Source: Patescibacteria group bacterium (GTDB lineage: Bacteria > Patescibacteriota > Minisyncoccia > Phycocordibacterales > JACZSL01). Taken from it: a DNA stretch of 64,000 nt. The stretch is from the NCBI GenBank assembly GCA_022574205.1, contig JACZSL010000001.1, positions 5,447-69,446 on the forward strand, written 5' to 3'. Shown here piece by piece: positions 2,287 through 40,340 of the stretch; the stretch's first letter is position 1, and each line of letters starts with the position of its first letter. The notes beneath the pieces are model-generated. The model was not told the origin of the DNA. It searched no databases and saw nothing but the letters and a program-made list of their open reading frames with translations. A program made the translations under genes and the position numbers.

Positions 2287-2347
2287 GAATCCTTGAATTT
2301 CATCCGAAGGCAGATCCGCCTCTGGCGGAAATTCAAGGATTTTTTTG
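2287..2347 (+). terminator. long hairpin (aatccttgaatttc ... gaaattcaaggatt) followed by T7
   Basis: 14-bp inverted repeat with a GC-rich inner stem, then tttttttgg. It belongs to the GAATCCTTG/CAAGGATTC palindrome family seen at 13022 and 19411. Confidence 0.5.
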
Positions 2348-2399
2348 GTGGACATAACGCACGAAACTTGCTTATGTCCTGAGTGGAGCGAAGGAGAAC
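2348..2399. repeat. 52-bp direct repeat, copy 1 (gtggacataacgcacgaaacttgcttatgtcctgagtggagcgaaggagaac)
   Basis: Near-identical to 3012-3063 (3 mismatches). It contains the internal hairpin ggacataa..ttatgtcc. Confidence 0.85.
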
Positions 2400-2433
2400 A
2401 AACTACATTCAAGGATCAAACTCTCTTATTTTC

Positions 2434-2934
2434 TTAAAGTTTATATTCTTCAAAAAACTCTTTGAGTTCTTCTTTTGTCCACCATCCAAAATCATCTGGA
2501 ATTGAGTTTTTATCAAATAAGATTACTTCTGTTACTTCTTGATTGGTCCGTGGGATATCTGCTAATTCAGCAATAACATATGGTGTAAAAGACCATTGGT
2601 TGTCTTTATTTTGAACATCAGACTCAATATCAATTATCTTATAGTCCTTCACTCTAACACCAGCTTGATCTTTAACAATCCTATTGACGCACTTCTCGAT
2701 TGATTCCCCGTACCGGATTAAATTGTGGCAAAAATAAAGTAAACCATTAGGATAATCTTTCGCCTTAGGTGGCAACTCGTGTTCGGGTATCGCGTTTGGA
2801 CGGCGTAAGGCAATATATTTACCATCCTTTTTTAGAAGAATCTCAAAAGTGATATGCAAGCCGCCACTTGCTTGTTTAGCAATTGGAGGAGCAAAATTTG
2901 CCTCTTTATTTTTCCAATCATATTCAAAAGTCAT
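2434..2934 (-). CDS. Nudix-like hydrolase (degenerate Nudix box); start taken at internal ATG (MTFEYDW..)
   Basis: The segment GESIEKCVNRIVKDQAGV approximates the GX5EX7REUXEEXGU Nudix box. The longer ORF version would read through the upstream repeat. Confidence 0.4.
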   Translation of the reverse strand: MTFEYDWKNKEANFAPPIAKQASGGLHITFEILLKKDGKYIALRRPNAIPEHELPPKAKDYPNGLLYFCHNLIRYGESIEKCVNRIVKDQAGVRVKDYKIIDIESDVQNKDNQWSFTPYVIAELADIPRTNQEVTEVILFDKNSIPDDFGWWTKEELKEFFEEYKL

Positions 2935-3011
2935 AGATAAATTATACCAAAAGTTCCAACATAAAGTTGGGTAGGTTAAAAATATGTTGAGAAATAAAGA
3001 TAAATTTGATT

Positions 3012-3063
3012 GTGGACATAGCGGACGAAACTTGCTTATGTCCTGAGTGGAGCGAAGGAGAAC
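3012..3063. repeat. 52-bp direct repeat, copy 2
   Basis: Matches 2348-2399. Both copies are in the same orientation and flank the Nudix-like gene. Confidence 0.85.
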
Positions 3064-3238
3064 CGCATGCATGAATGGATATTCGAAGCGCCCACTTTGG
3101 CTCGCGCCAAGCGAGACAGGTCAGAGGCGATTTCTGTGCTAAATAGCGAAAAAACAGCTTTGGTTTAGGTACAGTTGACATACTTAATCTCAATGATATT
3201 ATTGTCTGGGTCTTGGACCTTAACAATATAGTTATTCT

Positions 3239-5368: not shown

Positions 5369-5547
5369 GAGAATATCCTCAAAGTCAGTTTAGAAAGAAC
5401 AAACCAAACGTTGTTGTACACAACAAAAACATCTGGACCCATGAAGTGTGACATAATTTATAGTTTCTATCAATATGTTGACATATTGATATTTTATAGT
5501 ATTTTGTAACTAGATCATTATGTTTACAGCTTAGAGGAGTAGCAGCA

Positions 5548-6489
5548 ATGACTATCTTCATAATCACCCATCAGGCAGGATTTGAGGTTGATCCAGTTAT
5601 TGACAGATTAAAAAGTCTCAAACTTCCTTTTGTTCGCTTTAATCAGGACGATGGCGACAATATTTCTAAAGTCGGATTTCTTCGGTCAGATAGCAAGGAA
5701 AATATCTTTTGGACTAGCGACAATAAATCAGTTTCTTTAACCAATGTTGGTTGCGCGTGGTTTCAACAACCCCCGCCATTCACTGGGCAACCGGATAATT
5801 TTGAACAGGCTGTACAAAGAAACAATTTAATAGCATTTCTTGAAGCCACGTTTGACTTTTTGCCAGTAAAATGGCTTAACAGGGTAGCAAACGCGCGTCG
5901 AGCGGCAAATAAAGTTTTGCAGCTACACCTTGCTCCCTCAGTAGGATTAGCAGTTCCGAATACATGTATTTCAAATGACCCACTTACAGTACGCTCGTTT
6001 TGTTCCAAGGGACCGAGTATTGTTAAAAATCTCAATTCCTCATGGATAGCACAGGAGAATGATGCCGTCGTGTCCTCCACAAAGTTCGTGCAAGATGACT
6101 ACATAAAAGATGACCAAGCAATTATATTCTGCCCTCTCATATATCAACAATTCATTGAGAGAAGATATGATTACCGTGTAGTTATACTGGGAGACGCAAC
6201 GTTTGTATCTCGGTGTGATTCAACACTTGGTGATCCCGCAGATGTACGCGTTGACAACAAAACGGGAGCTAACTTCTACCGGGATAAAATACCTCCTGAA
6301 TATATTGAAAAGCTCAAAAATCTAATGGAGATCTTGGGTGTCGACTACTGTTCTGCAGACTTCATTGAGGACCGCGGAGGCAAAATCTTCTTTTTGGAAA
6401 TGAATATCTGCGGTGCCTGGTGGTGGATGGATGAACTCCATGGGGGTGAAATACTTGATTCTTTCGTGAAATACCTGACAACTCGATGA
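5548..6489 (+). CDS. ATP-grasp ligase, RimK/MdnC-like (RiPP/graspetide-maturase type)
   Basis: The N-terminus TIFIITHQAGFEVDPVIDRL and C-terminal FFLEMNICGAWWW resemble the ATP-grasp peptide maturase fold (E-x-N...W). Confidence 0.55.
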   Translation: MTIFIITHQAGFEVDPVIDRLKSLKLPFVRFNQDDGDNISKVGFLRSDSKENIFWTSDNKSVSLTNVGCAWFQQPPPFTGQPDNFEQAVQRNNLIAFLEATFDFLPVKWLNRVANARRAANKVLQLHLAPSVGLAVPNTCISNDPLTVRSFCSKGPSIVKNLNSSWIAQENDAVVSSTKFVQDDYIKDDQAIIFCPLIYQQFIERRYDYRVVILGDATFVSRCDSTLGDPADVRVDNKTGANFYRDKIPPEYIEKLKNLMEILGVDYCSADFIEDRGGKIFFLEMNICGAWWWMDELHGGEILDSFVKYLTTR

Positions 6490-6571
6490 GCCATCAAGAT
6501 GTGTTATCAGCGGTGGTGTGTACACTTCACATCACCGCTATTTTTTAACATATTAAATATTAAAGCAACCT

Positions 6572-7090
6572 ATGAAACTGCGAGAACAACTGGATAAAAT
6601 AATACATATTAACAAAGGTGAAAATTGGTGGAAGCCAAGGTTATTTAAAGATATAACACTCCCACAGCTTCCGAAAGAATTAAAGATTCTTGAATTTCCA
6701 CCTCTCAAAAACAATAATTACAACTGTTTTATTCATACACTCGGTCTCTCCAAGGATGTTGGAATTATAAAAAATAGTGGCGGTTTTATTTATGACACTT
6801 TTTTCCAAAAATTGATTGATAAAAAGGCGCTTATCCCTACAGACCATCCCAAAAACGGAGACTATATTTTATACAGAGACTCCCAAAATTATCCCGACAA
6901 AATCACCCATTCAGGTGTTCTTGACAATGGGAAAGTGGTGTCAAAGTGGGCGTGGGGACCACTTTTGTGCCATGACGTTTTTGATGTTCCCGCGTCTTAT
7001 GGAGACGAGATTTCTTACATAAAGGCAGTCGATCATAAAAAAGCACGGGATCTCTACTGGAAGTATAAAAAGTTTAATAAACTTCCATAG
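6572..7090 (+). CDS. papain-fold (NlpC/P60- or CHAP-like) Cys/His hydrolase candidate
   Basis: Candidate Cys sits in NCFIHTLG. Downstream, GDYILYR....ITHSGVLDNG resembles the GD..ff....HvgIy His motif. Confidence 0.35.
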   Translation: MKLREQLDKIIHINKGENWWKPRLFKDITLPQLPKELKILEFPPLKNNNYNCFIHTLGLSKDVGIIKNSGGFIYDTFFQKLIDKKALIPTDHPKNGDYILYRDSQNYPDKITHSGVLDNGKVVSKWAWGPLLCHDVFDVPASYGDEISYIKAVDHKKARDLYWKYKKFNKLP

Positions 7091-7433
7091 AAGAGTATTA
7101 CGACACACGAGGCTCAACATTGGGTGTATCGGGTGTGGCTTTTCGTTACTCTTTTTCCGTGTTTAGATGCTGTGTATTAACAATGGGGAAATATGCTAGT
7201 ATGGTATAAGGAAAAGTGTAATTATAATTAACACTTGTATGGCGAAAGGTAGAAATCATCAAAAAAGAGAGAAAAAGAAGCCGAAGAAGAGTAAGAAGCC
7301 TCATATTTTCTAACGCTTGTTTTATATTTGCTCGTGGCGTAACCACCACTGTGTGAGAATACCCCCGATCTCTATCGGGGGCACCTTTTATAAAAATTTG
7401 CATTGTTGAATACTGATAGTTAAACTGAACAAA

Positions 7434-8351: not shown

Positions 8352-8437
8352 AAACAAAAGTAAACAAAGAAGGGAAAAGAAGAAGCCGAAGAAGGCTAAA
8401 AAGTAGCTTAAACGGCTTATTTTCTGGGTAATTAGAC

Positions 8438-8507
8438 GTTCTATGCGCGAGGACCGACCTCGTGTGTGGACCGTTCTGTGCGCGAGGACCGACCTCGTGT
8501 GTGGGCC
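8438..8507 (+). repeat. 35-bp tandem direct repeat x2 (gttctRtgcgcgaggaccgacctcgtgtgtggRcc), each with internal cgagg/cctcg hairpin
   Basis: Two adjacent units differ at two positions. They lie 160 nt upstream of the 8670 gene. Confidence 0.85.
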
Positions 8508-13002: not shown

Positions 13003-13021
13003 GAGGTAGATATTGAAGAAA

Positions 13022-13056
13022 AAGAATCCTTGCTTTAAAGCAAGGATTCTTTTTTG
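13022..13056 (+). terminator. hairpin aagaatccttgc-tttaaa-gcaaggattctt + T6
   Basis: Perfect 12-bp stem, again built on GAATCCTTG/CAAGGATTC. Confidence 0.6.
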
Positions 13057-15825: not shown

Positions 15826-17118
15826 CTAGGGTGTAACGTATTCTATTTGCCTAAGCCCAAAATCGTTCGGACCACGGTCGAGGATTATCGTATCAGCGAC
15901 TGGCGGGGAAGTAGGGTCTGGCGCTTTGGCAACCTCTTCTGTCGGAGGCGCTTCCGGCATTTCTTCTTCGGTTTCCGATACCTTTTTCGGCTTGAACTTA
16001 ATAGGAATACCGCCAGGATCAGGCGTCGCCACAATCCAAGTATTGCCTAAGAGCGCTCGAGTGAAGGATTTTCCGTCGGTAATTGCACCACCTCCACCAA
16101 ACCCTGCAACAGAACGTTCAGATGAAAATGCCTTTGAAATGCTCGTAAGAAGATTGAGTCCACGGCCGCCTGTCGTGACACTGCGGTTGGCAGTCACTGA
16201 CTCCGGCATCGCCACAAGGTTAATTTCCCCAACGCCTTTTACATACCTCAAGACATACTTTGCAACGTCTGCTTGTATTGCCCCCAAGGGATTTATTTTC
16301 TTTGACTCTGACTCTGCGGTCACAATCCCAAGGCACTTCTGCGATCCTTCCGGCAATAAAAACCTCACCGTGTCAGCACGGCTTTTTCTTGCTTTAGCCA
16401 CGAGGTTCTGGTGTGGGACAAAAACAATGCGCGTGCCGCCAACCTTTCCTTCCTCCGGTATAAGAGGCTTACCGCGAGTATACTGCTGTTCGCACTCAGA
16501 GTTAAACCACTCTGCCAACCTTATTCCTCCTTCGGCTGCGTCCACTGACTCATTGAAGAGCTGTGGTTCCGGCAAAAATGGAGTACTGACATGCAGTATA
16601 CCCGGCAGTGGTTCGGGCGAGACAAACGTAACGGTCTGCGTTGGAGCAACATTTACGTCTCCGGTGGAGACGTTTACGTCACCTGTGGTGAGACTCACGT
16701 CGCCGTCGTTAACCGTCACACTTTGGTCACCGGTTCTTATCGCGCCATCAGCAATATTTACGCTGCCGCCAGTTGCCGTGGCACTACTACCTTCTACGTT
16801 AACCGTGTTGCTATTATCGTTCTTGTTAACGTTTTTGTTTTTGATGTCGATATCGTTCTTGTTAACGTTTTTGTTGTGAATGTCGATATCGTTCTTGTTA
16901 ACGTTTTTGTTGTGAATGTCGACTGTGGCACTACCCCCATACGCGGTCGATTTAGCAACCGCTTTCGCGCTTTGGCTTTGCTTCTGACCCTGCTTTTGCT
17001 TCTGTTTCTGACTCTGCTCCTGATTTGGAGCCGACGGTTTGTATCGATCATCTGCGAACGTGGTTGTCGACGCGAAAAGCGCAATAACAAACAGTACAAA
17101 CAACATTTTTGTATTCAT
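15826..17118 (-). CDS. secreted protein with KQ-rich region and 12-aa tandem repeats (DIHNKNVNKNDI x3)
   Basis: The signal peptide is MNTKMLFVLFVIALFASTTTFA. The repeats and low-complexity region are read from the translation. Confidence 0.55.
   Translation of the reverse strand: MNTKMLFVLFVIALFASTTTFADDRYKPSAPNQEQSQKQKQKQGQKQSQSAKAVAKSTAYGGSATVDIHNKNVNKNDIDIHNKNVNKNDIDIKNKNVNKNDNSNTVNVEGSSATATGGSVNIADGAIRTGDQSVTVNDGDVSLTTGDVNVSTGDVNVAPTQTVTFVSPEPLPGILHVSTPFLPEPQLFNESVDAAEGGIRLAEWFNSECEQQYTRGKPLIPEEGKVGGTRIVFVPHQNLVAKARKSRADTVRFLLPEGSQKCLGIVTAESESKKINPLGAIQADVAKYVLRYVKGVGEINLVAMPESVTANRSVTTGGRGLNLLTSISKAFSSERSVAGFGGGGAITDGKSFTRALLGNTWIVATPDPGGIPIKFKPKKVSETEEEMPEAPPTEEVAKAPDPTSPPVADTIILDRGPNDFGLRQIEYVTP
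16815..16922 (-). repeat. 36-bp tandem repeat x3 inside the 15826-17118 CDS
   Basis: The units are tatcgttcttgttaacgtttttgttKtKaatgtcga. Confidence 0.85.
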
Positions 17119-18084: not shown

Positions 18085-19095
18085 TCAACCGTGTAATAAG
18101 TCTATCAGAGCTTGCGAAATCGGTAGCCCCACCTCAAGTTCGGATGGTAGCCATTGTCCTTGAGGGTTAATTTCAAAGAATGTATAACCATCTCTTTCTG
18201 AATAACCTAAATCTATACAACCAAAGACTAGCCCTAGCGAAAAAGTTATATCACGGCAGAGTGCCGCAATCTTAGTGGGGAGAATATGCTCGGAGTAAAT
18301 TCTGCGATAGTTATGATGTCTCCAATCAACGCCATGGTTGTATCCATAAAGAGATTCGCCCACAATTTTTACTGCAAAGACCTTTTTACCCACCACCGTA
18401 ACGCGTACATCAAATTCCTTTTTTACCTCCTCCTGTAGAATAAATGGGCAGAGAGGAATACTGTCCAGATGTGCCTTAATCACTTTTTGCGACACCCGTC
18501 TAGTATATATGACTCTATTAAGCCTCTCCTTATCCTCTTTTGCGGGATTCAGTCGCACAAAACTACTGCAAACAGGTTTCACTATCATGGGCTTACCACT
18601 AAGATGTTCCAAAAAAGCAAGTGCCGCCTTCCGAGAATTACCAACACACGTTTCAGGGATACGCCATCCGATGCGTTGTGCAACGTGTAGCTGGTATGGC
18701 TTACGACCAGATATTCTTGTTGCCTCAGGCTCGGAAACCCACCTCACACCGTTGAGTAAGTGTGGAAAAGACCTTACGTATGCTTCCGTCTCCTCCAATA
18801 TATATCTCTCTTTCATGTCATAAGGCTCAGCTCGGTACTTGCCGCGAGGACGTCGCCACCAAACGCTCTTAACATTCTCCACAGAGAAGTTAGCGGCACT
18901 AGTGAGGAACCTTCTGTCTGGGCCATTTTGTCCGACTAGATACGATGATTCGAAACCATTGGGGTATCCACCTATGTCAAGTGTGACGTGGTCAACTCCA
19001 CGCTGATTCATTCTCTCTTGCACATATTTTGCGTGTGCGTCAAGAGAATGAGAAACAATTAAAACAGTGTTCTTCTGCATTTCAACTCTCCTCAA
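18085..19095 (-). CDS. ATP-grasp ribosomal-peptide maturase (MdnC/MvdD-like)
   Basis: N-terminus TVLIVSHSLDAHAKYVQERMNQRGVDHVTLD. ATP-grasp C-terminal motif TFFEINPQGQW. Confidence 0.65.
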   Translation of the reverse strand: MRRVEMQKNTVLIVSHSLDAHAKYVQERMNQRGVDHVTLDIGGYPNGFESSYLVGQNGPDRRFLTSAANFSVENVKSVWWRRPRGKYRAEPYDMKERYILEETEAYVRSFPHLLNGVRWVSEPEATRISGRKPYQLHVAQRIGWRIPETCVGNSRKAALAFLEHLSGKPMIVKPVCSSFVRLNPAKEDKERLNRVIYTRRVSQKVIKAHLDSIPLCPFILQEEVKKEFDVRVTVVGKKVFAVKIVGESLYGYNHGVDWRHHNYRRIYSEHILPTKIAALCRDITFSLGLVFGCIDLGYSERDGYTFFEINPQGQWLPSELEVGLPISQALIDLLHG

Positions 19096-19410: not shown

Positions 19411-19473
19411 TGGAATGAGAATCCTTGATTTAATCCTTGATTTAATCCTTGAATTAAATCAAGGATTCTTTTG
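19411..19473. repeat. composite palindrome agaatccttga-(tttaatccttga)x2..-attaaa-tcaaggattct + T-run
   Basis: 11-bp inverted arms with internal direct repeats. It sits near the right end of the cassette, between the divergent ATP-grasp and trpS genes. Confidence 0.7.
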
Positions 19474-32961: not shown

Positions 32962-34761
32962 TTATATTTCCAATGTAACAAATGTTTGCTCAGTGGATGA
33001 AGCTGTGTTTGAGAGTAGATCGCTTGAGATAACGATATAATAATATGTCGTACTTGCGGTCAGACCAAAGATGGAGAGTGAGTGATTAACTGTAAGTGTT
33101 GCATCTGAATTAAATAATGCTTCCTCGAGTACAATTGGTGTAGTAGTTCCATACCACAGAGTGCTGTCTGCATCTTCGTCAGTGTCCCATGTAATTGTAG
33201 CTTCAGTCGTTGTTGCGTTCGCCACAATGTTTGAAAGCACTGGTGCAGTTTCATCTACTGGTTCAGGTTCTGCCAATGTTGTTTCAAATGAGTTCTCTGT
33301 GCTCGTTGCGGTATTTCCAGATTCATCAGCAGATACAACAAGGTAATAATAGGTTGTACTTGCAGTCAGGCTAAAGATTGAGAGCGAATGACTCTGTGTA
33401 AGTGTCACGTCTTCAACTGTATTTGCCGAATTGGGGTCAACAGGGGCTGTCGTGCTATAAAATACTGTGCTGTCTGCATCTTCGTCAGTGTCCCATGTAA
33501 TTGTAGCTTCAGTCGTTGTTGCGTTCGCCACAATGTTTGAAAGCACTGGTGCAGTTTCGTCATCAACCTCTCCAGCATCGTCGTTTTCATCATCCTCATC
33601 ACACTTTCCTAACTTGTCCCCGTGGAAAATATGTGCCCATCGTGCATTTTTAGAGATTTGTATCGTATTCTCGCCTTTGTGGCACATGTAAACTTTTTTA
33701 CTTTTCTTTCCATTGTTATCTTTGTCGTCGTTGTCGTCTCCATTATCGTCATTATTATTATCATCATCATCATCAACATCATTCTTTTTTCCACCAAAGC
33801 TAAACTTGAACTTGAATCCTCCATCATCGTCTATTTTCAAGGTTGATTTCGAGTCGGCATTACTTAGTGTCACGCGTTGTTTTGTGCTCCCATTGCCGTC
33901 GGTTTCTTTGGTAAAGTTAAACTTTATTTTAAGTTCTTTTGAAGACGCGTGTATTTTTATTTTTACGGCATCATTTCCGTCGTCGTTAATGGTTACTGAA
34001 ACACGATCAAGTTTTGCGATGTGATTCTCTGCAAGATCAACGAGCTCGTCAATAAATGAATTAACTGCAGCCACACCAGACGCATTACCTTGGGAGGCGA
34101 ATACTGCTTTGGCTTCTTCAAGTTGTGCAAGAGCAAAAAGAAGAGCGTCCTGTACAGTATTCACATCAAAATCAAAGTTGCTTAGAAATTCTTCCTCAAG
34201 CAAATCAACACCATTGTCATTAGTACTTGTTGTAGTGCTTGCATTATTGTCCGAGCTATTCGATGTTGAGATTGTTGTGGTTTCGTTGGACTCGTTTTGA
34301 GTTGACGTACCATGGATGGTGCTAAAATTTATTTCAACGCTTTCGGCCAGCGCAAGTATTGCTTTTACCTCATCGATACGTTCTTCCGCAAACCGGAGGC
34401 GAAAAGAGTCTTCAGTGTCACCAAAAGTAATTGTGAGAAGGATTTTTTCTGCCGCTATGTCAAAAGGGAAGAAAAAATCACCAGGTTGTGAGTGATCAGC
34501 AAAAACCGCTGTGGTGGAAACTGATCCAACAAGAAACGCTAAAATGAGGGCGGGTATAAAAACATACCTGGAATAATTAAAAGTAGAGAACATATACCAA
34601 AATGATCCCTGAAGACGTGCTTTGTCTTTTGCTGTTACCGTTTCCGCACTTACATCAGGCTGTATATTCCTTTCAACACGTGACCAGAGAATTTTTTTCT
34701 CATTTTCTGTAAGACGTTTTGGTTCCATATGTTCTAAAATATCTTCAAACTTTGGCTTCAT
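32962..34761 (-). CDS. anti-sigma factor-like membrane protein with DN-rich linker and two fibronectin type III repeats
   Basis: Lies directly downstream of the ECF sigma gene. It has one TM and two near-identical FN3 units (ETAPVLSNIVANATTTEATITWDTDEDADST). Confidence 0.55.
   Translation of the reverse strand: MKPKFEDILEHMEPKRLTENEKKILWSRVERNIQPDVSAETVTAKDKARLQGSFWYMFSTFNYSRYVFIPALILAFLVGSVSTTAVFADHSQPGDFFFPFDIAAEKILLTITFGDTEDSFRLRFAEERIDEVKAILALAESVEINFSTIHGTSTQNESNETTTISTSNSSDNNASTTTSTNDNGVDLLEEEFLSNFDFDVNTVQDALLFALAQLEEAKAVFASQGNASGVAAVNSFIDELVDLAENHIAKLDRVSVTINDDGNDAVKIKIHASSKELKIKFNFTKETDGNGSTKQRVTLSNADSKSTLKIDDDGGFKFKFSFGGKKNDVDDDDDNNNDDNGDDNDDKDNNGKKSKKVYMCHKGENTIQISKNARWAHIFHGDKLGKCDEDDENDDAGEVDDETAPVLSNIVANATTTEATITWDTDEDADSTVFYSTTAPVDPNSANTVEDVTLTQSHSLSIFSLTASTTYYYLVVSADESGNTATSTENSFETTLAEPEPVDETAPVLSNIVANATTTEATITWDTDEDADSTLWYGTTTPIVLEEALFNSDATLTVNHSLSIFGLTASTTYYYIVISSDLLSNTASSTEQTFVTLEI
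33060..33600 (-). repeat. approx. 306-bp tandem duplication (FN3 units) with a 95-bp perfectly identical core
   Basis: Segment 33161-33255 is identical to 33467-33561. Confidence 0.8.
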
Positions 34762-36154: not shown

Positions 36155-37204
36155 ATGTGTGGAAAAGTTCTCCTCATGTTGTTCGTTTTACATATATTGT
36201 GCGAACCAGTTCTATGTTATTATGTATGTATGAAAAGCGACAAACCCATGCGTAAATACATACTCCCCTTTCTTGAATACTGCGAAGTTGAGAAAGGGCT
36301 TTCAAATAATACGCAACGCAATTACCAACAATATCTTAAGCTGTTTACTGTATGGTTAAAGCATATTCGGGAAGAAAATTTACTTCCCCATAAACTAACG
36401 CCTGATCATATATGGAATTATCGCCTTTATTTGGCACGTACTCATAAGAGCCCTACTGGAAAACTTTTAGCTAAAAAGTCCCAAAATTATTACTTAATAG
36501 CGTTACGTGTTTTTTTAGATTTTTTGGCGGACAGAGACATTGAATCCCTACCCTCCTCGAAAGTAAAGCTTGCGAAACAGAAAACTACCGAGAGTATTTC
36601 TTTCTTGGAAGTTCGTGATGTTGAAAAAATGTTAGCAGTTCCTGATATTGATACTTCAGGCGGCCTGCGGGATAGAACAATTATTGAGCTTTTCTTTTCA
36701 TCCGGTATGCGTATTTCTGAATTGATTGCCCTTAACGTAGATCAAATGTCATTTCTCGACGACAAAAAAACAGATAGGACATATGAGCTGTCTATCGTTG
36801 GAAAGGGCTCATATGTTCGAACTATTTTCATTTCTCCAAGAGCAGCTAAATTCCTTAGGAAATATATCCTCTTGCGGCACAATGACATGTATAAACCTCT
36901 GTTTATAAATTTTCGTTCAAAAAGCGCTGACTCAAAACGACTTTCATCTAGATATATACAAAAAATGATCTCGAAGTCTGCCCTCTTAGCGGGTCTTTCA
37001 AAAAGAGTAACTCCTCACACCCTACGACACACATACGCAACCGATTTACTTTCCCACGGAGCTGATCTTAGGAGCGTACAAGAGCTTCTGGGACATAAAA
37101 ATGTTTCTACTACGCAGGTTTACACACACGTTACAAACAAGCAGCTTCGAGATATCCATGAAAAATTTCACGGTGGAGGTGATATTAAGGACAAGAGCCT
37201 TTAA
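36155..37204 (+). CDS. xerC: tyrosine site-specific recombinase XerC/XerD-like (alternative start about 36230)
   Basis: C-terminal HTLRHTYATDLL..GADLRSVQELLGHKNVSTTQVYTHV with catalytic R, H, R and Y. Confidence 0.8.
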   Translation: MCGKVLLMLFVLHILCEPVLCYYVCMKSDKPMRKYILPFLEYCEVEKGLSNNTQRNYQQYLKLFTVWLKHIREENLLPHKLTPDHIWNYRLYLARTHKSPTGKLLAKKSQNYYLIALRVFLDFLADRDIESLPSSKVKLAKQKTTESISFLEVRDVEKMLAVPDIDTSGGLRDRTIIELFFSSGMRISELIALNVDQMSFLDDKKTDRTYELSIVGKGSYVRTIFISPRAAKFLRKYILLRHNDMYKPLFINFRSKSADSKRLSSRYIQKMISKSALLAGLSKRVTPHTLRHTYATDLLSHGADLRSVQELLGHKNVSTTQVYTHVTNKQLRDIHEKFHGGGDIKDKSL

Positions 37205-39362: not shown

Positions 39363-40340
39363 CTACAAGGTTTTTAGGAAGTTTTCTGTGACTTTCTCAA
39401 CCTCATCTGCCGTATTTTTCTGCATAAGCTCTCCTCTCAATTCACGTGCGCCTGGAAAATCATTTACATACGCCTTATAGTGCTTCTTCATAATTGCAAA
39501 GTTTTTTTGAGGCAATAATTCTACAAAAAGTCTTGTGTGCTTTAGCATTGTCTCCAGTTTTTCCCTGACATCTGCGGTATGCACAGGATCGCAAAATAGC
39601 CATGGATTTCCGAAAATTGCCTTCCCGAGCATTATGCCGTCTGCGCCAGTTTCATATATCTTTTGTTTTGCCTCTCCAATACTCATTACATCACCGTTTC
39701 CTACAATTAAGGTTTTGCTGTTCATTTTGTCTCGTATCTTAACTGCACGAGATATTGCGTCCCAATGTACGGGTACTTTTGACATTTCGCGCCGCGTGCG
39801 GGCGTGAATGGATATTGCTGAAGGTTTAGCAGACAGCAAGACCGGAAGCCATGTATCTAGTTCGTCTTCGTTATATCCAATGCGTGTCTTAATTGAGACA
39901 GGAATTTGTCTATCAGCGGATTCAGCTCCGGTTTTTGCTGCGGCTATAATTTCTTTTGCTAAAGTAGGATTTTTTATTAAAGCCGCACATGCGCCTTGTT
40001 TTTCTATATTCCGATCAGGGCATCCCATATTTATATCAACTCCATCAAAGCCCATATCTAGCGCTAAACGTGCTGCTTTTTCCATTAGCCCTGGCTTTGA
40101 TGTAAAAAATTGAGCAACAATCGGCTTTTCTTCTCTACTATAGATTAAATCCTGCATTAGAAGATTTCGTGCGTGTTCCCCACCAAGAAATAGCCCGTCT
40201 GCTGATACAAACTCTGTAAACATAACGTTGGGTTTTCCAAGGCTAGATATTAACTTTCGAAAAGCAGCATCTGTGACATTAGCCAATGGTGCTAGCACAA
40301 AAAACGGCTCTGCAAGTTGTTCCCAAAATCCTTTGTTCAT
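39363..40340 (-). CDS. dus: tRNA-dihydrouridine synthase
   Basis: N-terminus PFFVLAPLANVTDAAFRKL; TIM-barrel FMN motifs. Confidence 0.8.
   Translation of the reverse strand: MNKGFWEQLAEPFFVLAPLANVTDAAFRKLISSLGKPNVMFTEFVSADGLFLGGEHARNLLMQDLIYSREEKPIVAQFFTSKPGLMEKAARLALDMGFDGVDINMGCPDRNIEKQGACAALIKNPTLAKEIIAAAKTGAESADRQIPVSIKTRIGYNEDELDTWLPVLLSAKPSAISIHARTRREMSKVPVHWDAISRAVKIRDKMNSKTLIVGNGDVMSIGEAKQKIYETGADGIMLGKAIFGNPWLFCDPVHTADVREKLETMLKHTRLFVELLPQKNFAIMKKHYKAYVNDFPGARELRGELMQKNTADEVEKVTENFLKTL

Follow-up and report, generated by a model that had tools for sequence, protein, structure and literature searches.

A single gene bracketed by two near-identical, hairpin-bearing repeats raises the question of whether those repeats are recombination sites, as in an integron, or came to flank the gene in some other way. 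We addressed this for a locus on contig JACZSL010000001.1 (assembly GCA_022574205.1) of a Patescibacteria group bacterium. The stretch analysed, hereafter the window, comprised 64,000 nucleotides (positions 5,447 to 69,446 of the contig). An original prediction, made from the letters alone, had described there a Nudix-like gene between two 52-bp direct repeats and likened the layout to a gene cassette. The repeat observation was confirmed as real and statistically sound, and our comparisons support the repeats as the limits of a horizontally exchanged, self-contained single-gene unit. Tentatively, we read the unit as a 612-bp foreign module of promoter and open reading frame (ORF) that would have integrated at an intergenic hairpin, the two 52-mers being the duplicated attachment or target sequence.

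Both repeats lie on the plus strand and share the orientation predicted for them, the 52-mer GTGGACATARCGSACGAAACTTGCTTATGTCCTGAGTGGAGCGAAGGAGAAC occupying 2348-2399 (copy 1) and 3012-3063 (copy 2). No other copy was present in the window at up to three mismatches (0 expected, 100 shuffles), and a profile of the 52-mer searched with nhmmer --max detected no degenerate further copies. With the 4.8 kb upstream of the 64-kb window included, the count was two over ~69 kb. The copies were 96% identical over 52 bp, their similarity stopped sharply at that length on both flanks, and no target-site duplication was found around them. Three differences between the copies had been reported; within the window there are two, with copy 2 carrying G for A at 3021 and G for C at 3024 (52-mer positions 10, A/G, and 13, C/G), both in the left hairpin arm. 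The count of three is correct for several sister strains, in which copy 1 also carries G2350A. The predicted hairpin was present in each copy, its stem GGACATAA..TTATGTCC extending to ~11 bp around a 7-nt loop. In copy 1, this hairpin core spans 2350-2379 on the plus strand, with 11-12-nt arms (GGACATAACGCA and TGCTTATGTCC) and the loop CGAAACT, and the 30-nt hairpin recurs at 3014-3043 in copy 2. Fold energies ranged from -11.7 to -12.9 kcal/mol per copy with modest z-scores (-1.3 to -3.0), and the last 20 nt of the 52-mer were unpaired in the minimum-energy fold. Two other identities for the repeats were rejected. For the variable and template repeats of a diversity-generating retroelement, the inter-copy differences would have to be adenine-specific, which they are not, and a reverse transcriptase would be needed, which is absent. 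ARAGORN returned no credible match to support reading the minus-strand hairpin as tRNA-like or as a minihelix. Elsewhere in the window, 36 nt at 40155-40190 (minus strand, inside the Dus gene) were 75% identical to the 5' half of copy 1 and its left flank, probably by chance.

The gene between the repeats (2434-2934, minus strand) encodes 166 aa, not the 167 first given. Its assignment as Nudix-like held, through its fold rather than its sequence. The sequence evidence was weak (Pfam NUDIX E=0.0015, below the cut-off; phmmer against PDB, E ~0.05 to NUDT12 and NUDX1), whereas the AlphaFold2 model, built on 26 homologues (pLDDT, the predicted local distance difference test, 90.7), returned only Nudix proteins among its top 50 Foldseek matches against PDB, with E ~2e-8 to NudC, CDP-Chase and Ap4A hydrolase. 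On the strength of this model, the predicted Nudix fold is clear. The canonical box GX5EX7REUXEEXGU was not recovered in the alignment, which reads H-NLIRY-G-E-SIEKCVN-R-I-V-K-D-Q-A-G-V. Whilst E77 and R85 were retained, the glutamates of REUXEE were replaced and the first glycine was an invariant histidine, a pattern common to the 26 family members. Invariant residues of the protein include His, Cys and Glu. Upstream of the gene, a 77-nt region (2935-3011, minus strand) contains the extended -10 TGGTATAAT (plus-strand positions 2941-2949), which sits 6 nt before the ATG. The unit probably has its own promoter and would yield a leaderless mRNA. Downstream of the stop codon, a 34-nt spacer (2400-2433, minus strand; GC 0.29) separates the gene from copy 1, which places copy 1 in the 3' untranslated region (UTR) when read on the minus strand. 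In total, 612 bp lie between the repeats and the repeat plus insert form a unit of 664 bp. The GC content of the 612-bp unit was 0.34 compared to 0.41 for the window. Composition changed at the repeat edges, from 0.23-0.36 inside the repeats to 0.42-0.50 just outside, and the Nudix gene had the lowest third-position GC (GC3, 0.287) of 20 genes examined.

The distribution of the gene family was consistent with horizontal exchange. A word-indexed search retrieved 186 Nudix homologues with 60-80% identity, whose named hosts included Parcubacteria, Nanoarchaeota, Aenigmarchaeota and Pacearchaeota, that is, both bacteria of the candidate phyla radiation (CPR) and DPANN archaea. The best non-self matches of the neighbouring gene, in comparison, were only ~50% identical. 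No member of the family occurred in the viral contigs scanned. At three homologue loci (L003, L004 and L007), the gene stood among unrelated housekeeping genes and had no flanking repeats. L003 carries the closest allele, with 80% amino acid identity to the window's Nudix protein, whilst the RseP of L003 is only 28% identical to that of the window. The similarity between the two loci extended beyond the ORF. Over the 37 nt adjoining the ATG, identity was ~92%, and a further 40 nt, out to the edge of copy 2, were also similar (p=0.005). Past the stop codon, the 34-nt spacer showed weak similarity to its L003 equivalent (p=0.026) and none continued across the position of the 52-mer. Measured from the inner edge of copy 2, homology to L003 begins within ~4 nt. 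As promoter and ORF are common to the window and the otherwise unrelated L003, with an edge at copy 2, the repeats bracket almost exactly a horizontally shared module. GTCCAC is read both at the L003 boundary and at the minus-strand end of the window's 52-mer, and GTCCAC(C) also occurs 86 nt after the stop codon in both loci; the latter observation was post hoc and is not relied on here.

A sister strain captured the exchange of this gene at close range. L037 has a mosaic Nudix allele (L037 2164-2581, equivalent to window 2434-2784). Its left flank, copy 1 and the final ~90 nt of the gene (to 2522) were identical to the window, and from 2523 onwards the sequence was 93.8% identical at the DNA level to L003. 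This pattern is allelic replacement through homologous recombination inside the gene. Nine independent strain-level contigs extend to the gene (L001, L002, L028-L032, L037 and L038, from several samples), and each of them has it next to the repeat or repeats covered by that contig. Exact-protein look-ups for the gene likewise returned strain-level contigs only, all of them gene-bearing. The nearest relatives of the neighbouring gene, only ~50% identical, had nothing in common with the window beyond a two-gene pair, too little for synteny to reveal an empty site. Variation was found to the right of the repeats, where a 4.0-kb segment (3170 to 7160/7168) was missing from three contigs (L028, L029 and L031). 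A distance of 106 bp separates copy 2 from the left end of this segment, and the junction shows microhomology over 6-7 bp (GTTTAG). The 52-mer forms the boundary of neither the indel nor the allele breakpoint in L037.

How these observations fit together can be set out as a scenario in which a foreign single-gene expression module entered a resident intergenic hairpin element of the Patescibacteria chromosome and the hairpin site was duplicated on integration, so that two 52-mers would remain. Two routes may be envisaged. The first would be site-specific recombination at the hairpin, whose 11-12-nt inverted arms, set around a 7-nt spacer, match the geometry of core sites for tyrosine recombinases. 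The second would be a single Campbell-type crossover, in which the resident 52-mer recombined with another carried by a circular donor. Both the integration mechanism and the identity of the resident copy are points that we infer. Within the population sampled, this layout seems to have become fixed, the gene continues to be exchanged by homologous recombination within its own sequence, and nothing shows a sign of present cassette mobility. This insertion-scar reading is favoured because the repeat edges match the module edges, composition changes there and the gene is demonstrably exchanged. It is also supported by the lack of a recombinase within the module and the presence of an Xer-type recombinase in the window. 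Among known systems, it resembles cis-mobilizable elements (CIMEs) and other att-flanked islets in being recombinase-free foreign DNA between direct repeats of tens of bp, with repeat edges that are also insert edges. Unlike those elements, the repeat here does not derive from the 3' part of a tRNA or tmRNA gene (none was detected at the repeats by ARAGORN or Rfam, relaxed thresholds included), the unit holds one gene in 664 bp and no element with a cognate integrase is known.

Several results weigh against integration at the hairpin. The core-site geometry is typical of any hairpin and so does not discriminate. The window contains no dif-like site that combines matching arms with a spacer of 6 nt, and there was no GC-skew switch at the locus, the skew being positive on both sides. 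None of the nine strain-level contigs shows an empty site, an excised circle, a second insertion or an alternative cassette. The 52-mer was absent from Joint Genome Institute (JGI) metagenome contigs (queries GAAACTTGCTTATGTCCTGAG and CTGAGTGGAGCGAAGGAGAAC), viral contigs and plasmids, for which BLAST gave nothing relevant, so no resident or donor site is known. At L003, the module is not flanked by a comparable repeat. Finally, 20-25 nt of the repeat recur identically across phyla, for which integration of a foreign module offers no account.

This cross-phylum identity fits a rival explanation, which we consider unlikely, though a serious contender: that the 52-mer is a dispersed intergenic hairpin repeat, akin to repetitive extragenic palindromes (REPs) or miniature inverted-repeat transposable elements (MITEs), whose copies flank the Nudix gene incidentally or were inserted on either side of it. 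REP-like copies could still promote gene loss or gain by homologous recombination. The identity is confined to the 3' core of the repeat, TGTCCTGAGTGGAGCGAAGGAGAAC (2375-2399, plus strand). Its first 20 nt, TGTCCTGAGTGGAGCGAAGG (window 2375-2394 and 3039-3058), had exact matches of 20-21 nt at 15 foreign loci (L010-L024) from at least nine phyla in a scan of 185,579 species genomes (596 Gb), in which ~1 match was expected by chance. Hosts included Terriglobia, other Acidobacteriota, Cytophagales, Anaerolineae, other Chloroflexota, Planctomycetota, Omnitrophota, Clostridia and Chlorobiaceae, and the GC content of the core-bearing loci ranged from 0.37 to 0.69. In the Omnitrophota locus (L015), the identity extended over 25 nt, reaching precisely to the 3' terminus of the 52-mer. 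The flanks of the core were unrelated save for a short consensus, ~aGCC before and A(T) after. An adapter or assembly artefact was dismissed, as the matches lie in the interior of contigs, the projects and sequencing technologies behind these contigs are unrelated, and the window's arrangement was recovered in two independent assemblies.

The context of the core was also REP-like. The core AGCCTGTCCTGAGTGGAGCGAAGGAT was usually single within 8 kb, intergenic or at gene ends and in either orientation, and the gene-neighbourhood test found no recurrent neighbouring gene family around it. It was nested at the tip of larger palindromes in L010 and L021, formed a 67-bp tandem array in L011 (6836-7021) and was mixed with variants such as CCCTGAGCCTGTCGAAGGG in arrays of L020 and L024. 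Variants with the architecture CCTGAG-N5-CGAAGG occurred in the same loci as the core. We take strings like the core to be common intergenic repeats of environmental phyla, an assumption that serves as a lead and not as a result. No Rfam family matched the locus or two motif arrays, at gathering thresholds or at E up to 10, and literature searches, whether for the sequence string or for the topic, uncovered no account of the motif. Hammerhead, k-turn and selenocysteine insertion sequence (SECIS) readings of the core were rejected on inspection. Further resemblance came from the element as a whole, a short intergenic repeat with a 30-nt hairpin that fits the 20-40 bp of REP-type units and with a core that recurs between genes in many genomes, at times in arrays or nested palindromes, as in REPs, bacterial interspersed mosaic elements (BIMEs), REP doublets forming hairpins (REPINs) and Neisseria intergenic mosaic elements (NIMEs) (PMC3733652). 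The 5' end of copy 1 reads GTGG in the window and GTAG in L028-L030, L032 and L037, which recalls GTAG-tagged REPs (PMC3733652).

Set against this, ~69 kb contained only two copies, where REPs number dozens to hundreds of dispersed intergenic copies per genome, and the GTAG is found only as a strain polymorphism. Both copies occupy adjacent intergenic regions in the same orientation, which has a ~2% chance if two copies are placed at random among ~60 intergenic regions. Independent insertion also predicts no match between a repeat edge and the end of foreign-module homology, yet the inner edge of copy 2 coincides with it to within ~4 nt. Neither a Y1 transposase nor a REP-associated tyrosine transposase (RAYT) was found in the window (tblastn with CPR Y1_Tnp), and the 5' hairpin half of the 52-mer had 0 matches elsewhere in the JGI metagenome contigs and viral contigs scanned. 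Exact identity of 20-25 nt across phyla is, moreover, unusual for REPs.

A third explanation holds that the hairpin is the site of an active single-gene cassette system, of integron, IMEX (integrative mobile elements exploiting Xer)/dif or IS200/IS605 type, whose recombinase is encoded elsewhere. We regard this as improbable. Annotation of every window ORF of at least 150 aa found one recombinase, an Xer-like protein of 349 aa (36155-37204), 33 kb from the locus, which could possibly act on such a site. It matched XerC/XerD over its full length at ~220 bits. The integron-integrase model TIGR02249 scored 103 bits, on the C terminus only and against a cut-off of 265. There was no integron integrase in the 64-kb window and no recombinase between -7 and +12 kb around the locus. 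Cumulative GC skew flattens near 35-38 kb, around the Xer-like gene.

Resemblance to integron cassettes and the repeats of Vibrio (VCRs) lies in the layout: one ORF has a hairpin site downstream and a second, nearly identical site of matching orientation upstream, as in arrays. Unlike them, the locus has no R''/R' sites, IntI, attI or cassette promoter (Pc), its palindrome covers 30 of 52 nt, it consists of one unit and that unit has its own promoter. Reading both strands confirmed that attC cores (GTTRRRY/RYYYAAC) are absent, as had been stated originally: the repeat starts with GTTCTCC on the minus strand and ends with GGAGAAC on the plus strand. With only two sites in the window and the 4.8 kb upstream, there is no cassette array. 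The integron version of this explanation fails on every one of these points. Of the original cassette interpretation, the part in which the repeats delimit a horizontally acquired single-gene module stands. An integron-like cassette system is not supported, given two sites in ~69 kb, no attC, no integrase, homologues without flanking repeats and no empty site.

Versions that rely on Xer or on another enzyme acting at hairpins are without positive evidence, despite some likeness. The module itself carries no recombinase and an Xer-type recombinase is present in the host, as is characteristic of Xer-dependent elements. IMEX and dif modules are likewise small and recombinase-free, with short palindromic sites and a host Xer (PMC6449649, PMC7399989). 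Unlike these, the locus lacks the 11-6-11 architecture, is chromosomal and shows neither a skew switch, as at a terminus, nor an array of modules. Sites of dif modules also alternate in orientation, whereas those at the locus are direct. The ends of the hairpin arms, CATAA and TTATG, resemble the inner ends of the E. coli dif arms. A canonical dif site was rejected, as ATAA and TTAT are 14 nt apart instead of 6 and the alternative reading gives arms of 11-12 nt around a 7-nt spacer. Elements associated with palindromes in the IS200/IS605 group have subterminal hairpins in the same orientation and neither target duplication nor inverted repeats, as here. In contrast to such elements, TnpA is absent from the window, the 96% identity between the ends runs over all 52 nt and is not restricted to the hairpin, and ~69 kb hold no other copies.

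Two further observations favour an active system. In two of the three other loci, the gene family stands immediately 3' of a tRNA, which is typical of site-specific insertion. The L003 upstream boundary abuts the 3' end of tRNA-Ala(CGC) (L003 1508-1579), the gene following 78 nt downstream, and the L007 homologue is 106 nt 3' of tRNA-Gln(TTG) (L007 3821-3894), both in the same orientation as the tRNA. Downstream of the L003 copy, a candidate tRNA-derived repeat did not reach significance (p=0.06). The region is also variable among strains, but its indel and allele breakpoints fall elsewhere than the repeats, and no second cassette, empty site or re-use of a site was seen. Highly speculative is the extension of this idea in which the 52-mer would be the site of a recombinase-less single-gene CPR cassette system, driven by host Xer or an unknown enzyme, with its core belonging to a so far unrecognised, pan-bacterial family of tiny portable insertion or recombination sites that would move genes across lineages and domains.

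Lastly, the repeats might be expression elements that selection or gene conversion keeps similar, copy 1 as a stabilising or processing hairpin in the 3' UTR and copy 2 as an insulator or leader of the downstream operon. Copy 1 does lie between the Nudix stop codon and a terminator on the minus strand. The long terminator-like hairpin noted to its left is real (2284-2345): its 31-nt arms form a stem of the GAATCCTTG family flanked by an A run and a T run, and a 131-nt fold over it has an energy of -47.6 kcal/mol (z -4.9). It is likely a bidirectional intrinsic terminator that would end the minus-strand Nudix transcript. The two inter-copy differences move the register of the inner stem and retain ~11 pairs, an anecdotal point with two sequences only. 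In addition, judging by its letters, the cross-phylum core (CCU-GA-G-N5-C-GA-AGG) could adopt a small hairpin structure in which G.A pairs occur in tandem. The 3' end of copy 2 supplies a perfectly spaced Shine-Dalgarno sequence, AAGGAG, 6 nt before the ATG of a 33-aa ORF (3067-3168), whose stop codon falls at the junction of the 4-kb indel. This ORF is probably non-coding because a 1-nt insertion shifts its frame in L029 and L031, and it was rejected as a gene. An expression role is very unlikely overall, since the locus had no Rfam match to E 10, fold z-scores of wider regions were insignificant, G2350A breaks a stem pair without compensation, the 33-aa ORF has lost its frame in two strains, the element is missing from homologous genes elsewhere and copy 2 lies upstream of both the Nudix promoter and the predicted promoter of the next gene.

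The window consists of chromosomal DNA. Between copy 2 and the variable segment lies a GC-rich (0.50) non-coding spacer (3064-3169). The 4.0-kb segment encodes a 193-aa lipoprotein, a 425-aa YfaP-like protein, a 313-aa ATP-grasp protein resembling maturases of ribosomally synthesised and post-translationally modified peptides (RiPPs) and a 172-aa DUF7689-like protein. The 313-aa protein matched TIGR04187 (E=2e-44, under the cut-off) and is ATP-grasp peptide-maturase-like. The 425-aa protein is identical to the NCBI hypothetical protein IID26_00055, and the 90% cluster of the Nudix-like protein includes IID26_00045. In a related CPR contig (L026), a 222-aa Y1_Tnp protein (IS200/IS605 or RAYT-like; 6515-7183) is encoded directly upstream of a homologous lipoprotein/YfaP-like pair. 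Two ATP-grasp genes of the MvdD/graspetide-maturase type occur within 15 kb (18085-19095, minus strand; 5548-6489) and suggest RiPP biosynthesis. The rest of the window carries housekeeping genes, including TopA, SerRS, a short AspRS, GltX, RelA/SpoT and MurA, along with PriA, MreB, FtsW, MurG, ParB and DprA. The GAATCCTTG stem of the hairpin at 2284-2345 is common to terminators at 13020-13053 and 19419-19472. The family stem AAAGAATCCTTG...CAAGGATTCTTTT occurs at these three places (19415-19472 for the last) and at L001 744-778, and three tandem ATTTAATCCTTG units come before the copy near 19.4 kb. Other local repeats comprised three 36-bp tandem units (16815-16922), two 35-bp tandem units with a GC-rich hairpin (8437-8506) and two 124-nt copies 306 bp apart (33132-33561).

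Genomes of CPR bacteria and DPANN archaea are tiny and hold few recognisable mobile elements, yet they have some genes in common at very high identity. The locus described here presents one such gene as a 612-bp module with its insertion boundaries preserved as 52-bp repeats, and a sister strain documents an allele swap. Should the repeat prove to be a recombination site, it would offer a clue to how these lineages exchange single genes without classical integrons or transposons.

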